DNA from: Escherichia coli O157:H7
Lineage (GTDB): Bacteria; Pseudomonadota; Gammaproteobacteria; Enterobacterales; Enterobacteriaceae
NCBI RefSeq assembly: GCF_013167455.1
Contig: NZ_CP038328.1
Direction: 5' to 3' (one strand)
Length of the DNA: 64,000 bases
Part shown: piece after piece, positions 6,001 through 9,000 of the stretch
Layout of the letters: each line of letters starts with the position of its first letter
Numbering within the stretch: position 1 is the first letter of the stretch
Program-made: the position numbers

Positions 6001-9000
6001 TCCTCATCCGGCCTCTCCACCTGCTCTTCCTCATGCCGGGGGACAAGCAGACTGAAATCAGAGGGATGCATATCCGGATCGCAAAAAAACAGGCTGAGTA
6101 CAGCGTACGTCAGCCCGGAAAAATGCATATCCAGCTGGGTATCCTGAAAATAATGCGTGCGGTAAAAACGGTGCCAGTCGGCATATTCGGTGGATGTCAT
6201 CCCGGCAAGCATGGCGCGCCAGTCGGGTCTCCCCATCTCACGCGCCAGTCTGAGGGCAAAGTTCAGCTCGCCGTCGAAGACTTTCCCGCAGAAAAATCAT
6301 CATCAGTCAGCGTGTTATTTTTCGCCACTTCAGTAATATCAGTATCCGGACGAACAGCCCCGCTCATCCCGGACAGGCACAACACCACGTCTTCCGCCCG
6401 GGCAATGGCATCGGCAGGCCAGGTGGTGAGCACTTCCTGCTCTATCTTCATCACGGCCTCATTCATTGACGGTGACTGCGTTTTCTGTGGATGGTTATGC
6501 CACAGGGACATCGCCACCAGAAACGCGCCGGTTCTGACGAGATCTTCCACGCTTACCTGCAGGTTGCCGCTGGATTCTGCCTGTTCTGCACGCCGTTTCA
6601 GGAGGGCAAGATGCTCGATACGCTGCAGCGCAGACAATTCGGAAAGCGTGACAGACACACCGTTATATTCAAATTGTTCTGTTTTCAGAAACATGTATGA
6701 CCTCCGTTTACCCTGCAGCGCCCGCTTCAGTAACGGTGACTTCAGCCACTGCGGCGAACTGACCATTTCCGCTCACCACAGGGATCTGCACCTTACCTGT
6801 CGCCACGCCGTTTACCGTAATTGTCATATCTTTCACACTAATGGTGGCTTTCGACGGATCGGCGGAAACCGCTCTGAACGTCTTGTCTGTTGCACTTTCC
6901 GGCTCAAAAGAAACCGTCAGGGTGGTTGTTTTCCCTTTTGCCACCGTACCGGATGTCGGCGTCACCTTAATCGCACTGACCGGCGTAATTTTGCTGCGTT
7001 CTTCCGCTACAGAAGGTTTACCCACGTTAGTGACTTTCACCGTGCGGGTGATCACTTCTTTCGCCGTCACGGCCTTACCGATACTGCTGACCCAGCCACG
7101 AAACACATCCACCGTGCCATTCGGAAAACGGATTTTATAGGCCCGGACATCGCCGCTTTCAAACCAGCCTATAAGCCCTTTCTGGCCTTCCTCTCCCGGT
7201 TTCCAGGCCAGCGTAAAACTGGTATCACCTGCAGATTTCTGCCCCTGCCCGGTCGCGGTCCAGTCCGCGTCTTCATCATCCAGGTAGTTATCATCGTAGG
7301 ATTCTGCCGTCATCTCGCCCGGCGTCAGATCCTTCACCTTAGCCAGTCGCTGCCAGTCATCGTCTGACAACGGGTTTGCATAGGCGTCACCCTGACCGTT
7401 ATAAACCCACAGGGTGGTACCGGCTCCTTTTACCGGCTCCAGGGGAATTCGTGTTTCGGCTTGACGTAGCCCGGACGTAACACGCGGGTTTCACCACCGC
7501 GATGACGCAGCACTTTTCCTTCAACAACCGGGGAGACATAGGCCGCCACCGGCGTTTTTCCGGTAATTTTGTCCAGCATCACCTCTTCGGTATGGAAATT
7601 CACCGTACGGCGGAAAAACAGCTCCAGAAACAGCGCACGAAATTTCACTTTTTGTTCGGTATAACCGAGTAACTGGCGGGTCGTAAACAATCCCATAAAT
7701 CAGTTCCTTTCATTCAGAAATCAGTCAGGCCACCGCGGTGGCCTGATAACGTGTTACGGCAGCGCCGCGTGACTCAGGGCACTGCCGGCAAAGGCATTTG
7801 CCTTTTTGTGTTCATCCACACTTTCAGGCCAGCGGATTGCCTCCGTCGCAAAGGTCCCCGACTTGTAATAGGTCAGTACCGTCTCTGTGCCTTCAAGCGG
7901 CAGTACCAGTATGCCAACTGCACTACCGGCTTTCTGTCCGTCCCAGACCACCAGTTTCCCGCTGGCTTCATCCAGCATCAGGGGCGTCAGTGCCGGTGTT
8001 GCCGAGGAAATCCCGCTGCTGCCTGTGGCGGTATGAGCCGGATCATTACCGGCAAAAATACGTACTTCCGCACGCTATTCAGTGATGTTTTTCGTTACCA
8101 TATTGTAAAAACCTCCTGTTGATGGTCAGCACTGACTTCATGGCATGGCCATGAGCATTTTCACGTCCGCATCACCGTCTGCTGACGTCTGTGGCACGCC
8201 ACCCTGTACCGCAGCCGGTGAATGGTTCGCCATGATGCGTTCAAACAGGGCGGTTGTGGATGCAGAGACCGGTTCTGCCTTACCTGATCCCGCAGCCAGC
8301 ACAGCCCGGGCGCTCTCCACAGTCATTCCCGGGCAGGCAGCCAGCTGTTCAGCCTGCGCCTCAGCCCCTTTTGCCTCATCCAGTGCCATGATCTGATCAC
8401 GGAGTGAGGGTCCGGCATCCGCCTGCGGTGAAGCAGCCAGGATCGGGCGGGCTTTTTCCACCGTCATCTCCGGCATCGCCGCCAGCGTTGCCGCCAGTTG
8501 TTCACGACCGTTCGCTTCTTCACACGCCATAATGCGATCGGCTTCACTCTGCGTGGATGCCACCGGCTGCTGCGGTGCCGCCGCGGCCAGAATCGCCCGG
8601 GCCTGTTCAACGCTCATGCCCTGTTGTCCTGCCAGCATCGTGGCAAGCTGTTCACGTCCTTTCGCTTCCTGGCATGTCAGGATCCCCATCACTCGCTGGT
8701 TCTCCTGCGCGGCGGCTTCCGTTGCAGTTAATTGCGGCATAGTGCCTCCTCTGACATTACTGTTCAGCGCCGTGGCCATCACACTGATGGCATCCGACGC
8801 ATTGACTAATTCATCCGCCAGCCCGGCATCAATGCCGGACTGACCTTCAAAAACGGCGGCCTCTGTTCCCGTGACGGCATCAACAGACAGACCGGTAAAC
8901 ATGGCCACTTTTTCGGCAAACATCCGGCGCGCCGCATCAATGCGCTGCTGCATGTTCTGGCGAACCTCTGCCGGTAAGGCTTCAAACTGATTGCCATCCA

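Follow-up and report, generated by a model that had tools for sequence, protein, structure and literature searches.

The question raised by this locus is whether a damaged prophage of Escherichia coli O157:H7 still carries a programmed -1 ribosomal frameshift signal in its tail genes G and T, and whether such a signal would still be used. The locus lies in a stretch of 64,000 nucleotides (nt) of contig NZ_CP038328.1 (assembly GCF_013167455.1), all of which was analysed and is referred to here as the window; it holds a lambdoid prophage that is integrated beside yccA/tusE, carries sodC and has ISEc8 in nu1. A previous inspection of the same DNA (the sequence-only reading) had reported a conserved slippery heptamer just before the end of G and had called the frameshift intact despite damage to other structural genes. 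On the sequence evidence, the site is very probably a programmed -1 ribosomal frameshift signal of the lambda G-T type, in an O157:H7 lambdoid prophage of the Sp4/CP-933M type, beside yccA. All of the sequence-level features of the lambda G/GT system were found, namely homology of G, T in the -1 frame, V-G-T-H synteny, an in-phase heptamer and its positional conservation. This is an ordinary signal that is already known, and there is nothing new in the main finding: the G-T frameshift is among the best-known phage recoding events, and the importance of a near-identical copy is mainly for annotation. The residual novelty is limited to a possible downstream stimulator and to whether this copy serves the O157 prophage pool. 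The elements on which the argument depends are as follows.

6281..6287, minus strand: slippery heptamer G GGA AAG of the X XXY YYZ type, in the zero frame of G; lambda G/GT has the same heptamer (PMC3296357 Table 1).
6263..6694, minus strand: gene G, tail assembly chaperone gpG, 143 amino acids (aa), ATG at 6694..6692 and TGA at 6265..6263, RefSeq WP_000479117.1.
5823..6287, minus strand: -1 frame T segment, read after the slip as GGG AAA GTC ..., 154 codons, TGA at 5825..5823.
6266..6296, minus strand: G/T overlap of 31 nt with both frames open, limited by tandem -1 TGAs at 6302..6297 upstream and by the G stop downstream.

The plus strand reads CTTTCCC at 6281..6287, which gives GGGAAAG on the minus strand from 6287 to 6281; the sequence-only reading was thus right about sequence and place, and the strand that it left unstated is the minus strand. 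In the zero frame of G the phase is G GGA AAG, and the heptamer encodes Gly-Lys in the zero and -1 frames alike. Five sense codons (TCT TCG ACG GCG AGC) and then TGA follow it, so that AAG is the sixth codon ahead of the G stop, the distance previously given. The -1 frame is stop-free from 6296 to the TGA at 5825..5823, with 154 codons counted from the heptamer and no stop within 6281..6236, which bears out the claim that it is open into T. Upstream, this frame is closed by two tandem TGAs (6302..6297) and opens three codons before the heptamer, so that a slip is confined to the 31-nt overlap, where GGGAAAG is the sole in-frame X XXY YYZ heptamer. Two other sources of a shift were considered and rejected: the sequence T TTT TCT (6295..6289), just inside the open -1 frame, has a Ser codon in the A site that cannot re-pair, and is absent in lambda; and transcriptional slippage was discarded as the A run comprises three residues only.

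Both products of the locus match known families. The G open reading frame (ORF), preceded by a Shine-Dalgarno sequence (GGAGG at 6705..6701), matches PF06894 (Phage_TAC_2, lambda tail assembly chaperone G; Pfam) over residues 1-118 with E=7e-51, and the -1 ORF matches PF06223 (Phage_tail_T, minor tail protein T; Pfam) with E=3.9e-14. The predicted GT fusion is 290 aa long and would have the junction peptide FSAGKVFDGELNFALR (...FSAGKVFDGE...). The gene order on the minus strand is V, G, T, H, which places the pair between the major tail and tape-measure genes, and the end of T overlaps H by 20 nt.

3263..5842, minus strand: gene H, tape measure protein, 859 aa, PF06791 and PF09718, full-length, 94% identical to H of PhiR12_2.

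A short heptamer might occur at such a place by chance and have no recoding role. Bare GGGAAAG is indeed not enriched, with 9 occurrences on both strands of the window for 8.3 +/- 3.2 expected from shuffles, and enrichment was dropped as evidence. What stands against chance is that the heptamer has the right phase, occupies a unique spot in the 31-nt two-frame overlap and is homologous to the experimentally defined site of lambda. Its significance, as judged from the sequence, lies in this phase, position and homology, which are above chance, unlike the bare count.

Conservation was examined in 181 G-T loci from GenBank phages and IMG/VR. A heptamer of the form N NNA AAG was present in the G zero frame within the G/T overlap in 177 of the 181 loci, as GGGAAAG (84), GGAAAAG (92) or AAAAAAG (1), with its AAG six codons ahead of the G stop in some loci and two in others; this was so with protein identity down to 35%. 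GGGAAAG itself was kept in 79 of 80 close relatives. Three of the four exceptions were truncated loci, and the fourth (L012) had an indel upstream of a retained GGGAAAG. In that lambda-like G-T locus (1501-2337, IMGVR_UViG_2695420576_000005) the indel is about 60 nt upstream of the heptamer, and the N-terminal part of G lies in the frame of T with a stop between them, which may represent a broken G-T or a sequencing error. The slip-site lysine (Lys138) was invariant across seven aligned GT proteins, from lambda to Gifsy-1, with 35-72% identity. The site is therefore conserved, as had been proposed, and a chance heptamer, effectively refuted by this conservation, is hardly credible.

The annotation of the locus suggests another explanation, in which T would be translated from a start of its own, with no role for the heptamer. 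In RefSeq, T is a separate coding sequence (CDS) at 5823..6236, encoding a 137-aa 'phage tail assembly protein T'; GenBank likewise annotates a separate T CDS, and an in-frame ATG is present at 6236. A properly spaced Shine-Dalgarno sequence was not found upstream of this ATG, which falls within the invariant motif LAREMGRPDW; relatives with Phe in place of Met (LAREF...) have no ATG at the equivalent position. In addition, the -1 frame peptide K-V/A-x-x-x-E-L-x-F-x-x-x-L-A-R-E/D is conserved from lambda to Gifsy-1 starting exactly at the heptamer, and its residues K-V/A-x-x-x-E-L-x-F lie upstream of 6236, which speaks for T being read as a continuation of G and not from the ATG of RefSeq. In curated phage records, T is the downstream half of the frameshift product. 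Independent initiation of T thus appears unlikely on this indirect sequence evidence, and we give it very little weight.

If the locus works as in lambda, most ribosomes on G would keep the zero frame through G GGA AAG and terminate after five more codons, producing gpG (143 aa). A small fraction would slip back by one base, with the tRNA-Gly on GGA and the tRNA-Lys on AAG re-pairing to GGG AAA, and these ribosomes would pass the G stop and read 152 more codons to give gpGT (290 aa). The mechanism is transferred by homology to lambda, and the slippage itself and its rate are likewise inferred for this locus. In lambda, approximately 96% of ribosomes stay in frame and the rest slip by -1 on GGGAAAG to give gpGT (PMC3296357). 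Tail assembly in lambda depends critically on a gpG:gpGT ratio of about 30:1; the tape measure gpH is bound by gpG and by the G portion of gpGT, gpV is bound or recruited through the T portion, and the virion contains neither chaperone (PMC5009743). G_GGA_AAG ranks among the most shift-prone heptamers of E. coli (PMC5009743, PMC4066793), and the A-site AAG is read by a single E. coli tRNA-Lys (mnm5s2UUU), the thiolation state of which tunes the shift (PMC7618472). Loss of the 2-thiouridine sulfur relay raises lambda G-T frameshifting (PMC3296357). A member of this relay, tusE, is located at 43254-43583 of the window, beside yccA and just outside the prophage; its adjacency to this prophage is almost certainly a coincidence.

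The sequence downstream of the heptamer was folded, and a consensus was drawn from the relatives.

6203..6273, minus strand: predicted, unproven two-helix RNA structure, from folding and the consensus of relatives.

In this prediction, helix 1 begins 7 nt past the heptamer and joins 6273..6266 to 6210..6203; the hairpin of helix 2 is formed by 6247..6232 and 6227..6212. The 98 nt from the heptamer onward had a folding energy of -45.8 kcal/mol (z=-4.2 relative to dinucleotide shuffles). In nine distinct sequences, 90.5% of cells were compatible with the pairing, and the covariation score was 0.194, a value that none of 500 shuffles reached (0.066) and that was above the slid controls (0.115 or less). 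In 59 distinct gap-free sequences the pairing was retained at 91%, versus 19-45% when slid, and one helix-1 pair varied by clade (GC, AU or CG). Compared with synonymous recodings, the native fold had greater stability, with z values of -2.5 for the window, -2.0 for HK225, -1.7 for mEp213-like sequences and, more weakly, -1.2 for lambda; in the Gifsy clade this extra stability was absent (z about 0) and the fold differed. The folded region also encodes the invariant peptide LAREMGRPDWRAM, and this coding constraint, together with the kinship of the sequences, makes the evidence for the structure suggestive rather than proof.

Other signals were sought around the site. No GGAG-like element that could act as a Shine-Dalgarno-like stimulator 6-17 nt before the heptamer was present in the upstream sequence GATGATGATTTTTCTGC, and an Rfam scan of 5500..7000 returned only a chance match to a long non-coding RNA fragment (E=0.25, under the gathering score). 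Levin et al. in 1993 reportedly did not find a required downstream element, and the literature on the lambda G/G-T frameshift includes Levin, Hendrix and Casjens (1993) and Xu, Hendrix and Duda (2004, 2013, 2014).

The downstream structure is itself not new, as it was flagged in 2014 (PMC4066793). Table S4 of that work (Sharma 2014) lists the cluster 'G_GGA_AAG_4, gpG, phage tail protein [true]' with the Shine-Dalgarno entry 'N' and the structure entry 'Y', and with synonymous-site suppression that was not significant (PMC4066793 Table S4). In reporters, the bare GGGAAAG heptamer shifted at 0.28%, rising to 3.8% with the moderate stimulators of IS911 and to 43% with the IS3 pseudoknot (PMC4066793); the approximately 4% of lambda would be compatible with a modest stimulator. 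The predicted structure is a suggestive candidate for a frameshift element. It is conceivable, though we consider it rather unlikely, that the two-helix structure (6273..6203) is a real stimulator common to the lambda-, N15- and phi80-type G-T genes that would raise a bare-heptamer slip of about 0.3% to the approximately 4% of lambda, with the Gifsy/mEp460 type (G GAA AAG, two codons before the stop) arranged otherwise. If this were true, the stimulator would be an additional cis element in a system whose usual description stops at the slippery heptamer.

Whether the signal is of any use in this prophage depends on the genes around it; the structural genes of the phage in this region are all on the minus strand. 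Damage was mapped by gene-by-gene comparison with the intact relative PhiR12_2, and G, T, H, M, L, K and I were intact or full length, as were W, B and C (full length). ISEc8 (13605..15917) interrupts nu1, which encodes the small terminase subunit, and the terminase gene A carries a frameshift that splits it at about codon 82-85, where there is an 11-nt homopolymer (13072..13082). In D, the gene for head decoration (7754-8101, minus strand), codon 9 is an amber TAG (8077..8075), where PhiR12_2 has CAA. A 2.5-kb deletion, with its junction at about 7446..7455 on the minus strand, fuses E at codon ~84 out of frame to codon 6 of V, and takes with it the rest of E (major capsid), FI, FII, Z and U, plus the start and ribosome-binding site of V.

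6708..7448, minus strand: V remnant, major tail protein and partner of the T domain, PF16461 plus Big_2, with the first five codons, start and ribosome-binding site gone.

The damage to other structural genes that had been reported was therefore found, as the D amber, the E-V deletion, the split of nu1 by ISEc8 and the frameshift in A. To judge from the lesions in D, E, FI, FII, Z, U, V, nu1 and A, the prophage cannot build virions on its own. Part of this is concealed by the annotation. RefSeq marks only E as a pseudogene, skirts the D amber by starting D at an ATT at 8059 (101 aa), and starts V at an ATT at 7448, the first canonical in-frame start being TTG at 7370; its ATT starts for V and D, and its split of G and T, mask the V/D damage and the fusion product.

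The prophage fits Sp4 of strain Sakai (CP-933M type) in its sequence features. In the published scoring of Sp4, portal, minor tail and host specificity are given as + and head, major tail and packaging as D (PMC2669165 Table 1). The ISEc8 element (IS66 family: tnpA, tnpB, transposase), at 13568-16007 of the window, matches the published description of Sakai Sp4. The homopolymer at 13072-13082, C on the plus strand and G in the sense of A, may be a slippage-prone tract or an assembly-sensitive site. Compared with strain 17B6-2, the window is not base-identical throughout, and gene coordinates agree up to about 13 kb.

A second prophage of the same O157 genomes, Sp14-like, contains the 4-kb block 5000..9000 with 100% identity. 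This block, within the Sp14-like locus NZ_CP066753.1 2111723-2139723, carries the same E-V deletion, D amber and G-T, which points to duplication, exchange or gene conversion between the prophages. The Sp14-like prophage also carries espJ and an EspF-repeat/tccP-like gene. An assignment of the window itself to this espJ/tccP prophage was ruled out by whole-window comparison, and the window is instead the yccA-side Sp4/CP-933M-type copy. The surrounding 4 kb had matches at >=99% identity in 308 records, and 3772 of 5426 E. coli genomes had some match; this G-T copy occurs in hundreds of O157:H7 genome sequences.

Several of these observations weigh against the locus as a working frameshift signal. 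RefSeq records G and T as two CDSs and slippage is absent from the annotation; the bare heptamer shifts at only ~0.28% without stimulators (PMC4066793), and the rate here would depend on context. A promoter scan found no promoter-like site near or internal to G-T, and ISEc8, an inverted lysis cassette and a remnant of an IS3-family element break up the late operon upstream, so that transcription through G-T is uncertain. Finally, gpV, the partner of the T domain, has no start codon in this prophage.

A rival view of present-day use is that G-T is a sequence fossil, left intact by recent decay or by homogenising recombination with sister prophages and not translated or used today; this view is compatible with a lambda-type signal, and we regard it as a serious possibility, at somewhat below an even chance. 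The truncation of E, the loss of FI, FII, Z, U and the V start, the D amber, the split nu1 and the frameshifted A would agree with it, as would the 100% identical 4-kb segment with the E-V deletion in the Sp14-like prophage of the same genomes. The T segment is identical to that of PhiR12_2, and with zero differences selection in place is not assessable. In Sakai, transcripts were markedly increased after mitomycin C for Sp5, Sp13 and Sp15 (PMC2669165). On the other hand, Sakai Sp4 DNA was amplified, excised and packaged with the help of other prophages (PMC2669165), which implies that the cell has active late genes from its pool of prophages, and the minor tail genes (G, T, H, M, L, K, I), unlike the head genes, have all kept their full length. 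The claim that the frameshift is intact stands at the sequence level, that of heptamer, phase, open frames and homology. For the lambda-type signal identified here, recent decay or exchange between the lambdoid prophages of O157 is a more likely reason for the intactness of G-T than present use, which is doubtful for the site in this prophage. The minor-tail block of this defective prophage is nevertheless still sequence-competent, which bears on the idea that O157 prophages may complement one another (PMC2669165).

Some further features of the prophage were recorded. A member of the Cu/Zn superoxide dismutase family, sodC (189-716, plus strand), is a moron-like insertion between the tail genes I and J, to which it runs in the opposite direction. 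A lysis cassette (holin, lysozyme, Rz-like and PerC-family genes; ~16300-20200, plus strand) is flanked by ISEc8 and by an IS3-family transposase gene with a frameshift (20234-21210); its orientation is opposite to that of the structural genes and to that found in the Sp14-like prophage. Three tRNA genes (Ile, Arg, Arg; 23726-23975, minus strand) are located downstream of the region of the Q antiterminator, an arrangement shared with other lambdoid prophages of O157. The D-E intergenic region contains a 9-bp GC-rich perfect hairpin, TCAGGCCACCGCGGTGGCCTGA (7725-7746, minus strand), which was matched by a terminator scan and has a weak T tract.

Among known systems, E. coli dnaX and IS3/IS911 use the same slippery tRNA-Lys on A AAG within X XXA AAG (PMC6924986, PMC4066793). 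Those signals have proven stimulators, an upstream Shine-Dalgarno-like element and a downstream stem-loop or pseudoknot, with an efficiency of 15-50%, whereas the window has no upstream element and a downstream structure that is predicted only. Phages of the N15/HK225, phi80/mEp213, mEp460 and Gifsy-1 types have G and T homologues in which the -1 frame is open and A AAG provides the A-site codon at the corresponding position. Their heptamer is G GAA AAG in place of G GGA AAG and is reported to be the less slippery of the two (PMC6924986), and in the mEp460/Gifsy type AAG is just two codons before the G stop. The heptamer of Stx1a phages is A AAA AAG.

Lambda itself was compared by running the same script on a lambda-derived genome. 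The heptamer G GGA AAG, its phase and the five sense codons from AAG to the stop are all equal to those of the window (PMC3296357 Table 1, PMC7618472), and in both cases the T domain is in the -1 frame and G-T lies between V and H. Identity between window and lambda is 68% for G and 72% for GT, the window G being 3 aa longer and its GT 11 aa longer (290 versus 279 aa). Other differences are that the -1 frame is closed 3 codons upstream in the window and 13 in lambda, that T overlaps H by the 20 nt noted above, and that the prophage in the window is defective and has no functional V, E, U, Z, FI or FII.

The intact phage PhiR12_2 (PV340550.1) and the Stx2a-converting phages have the same heptamer context as the window and, unlike it, a complete head and tail module. 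The viability of PhiR12_2 is taken from its GenBank record alone (complete genome, host MG1655, all structural genes annotated). Its G differs from that of the window by 8 nt and 2 aa (98.6% identical), and its T segment is identical at 465 of 465 nt from heptamer to stop, so that the T segment of the window, if translated, should behave as it does in that phage. By sequence comparison, the G-T of the window is a member of the lambda G-T family, essentially the PhiR12_2 allele and close to the alleles of the Stx2a phages.

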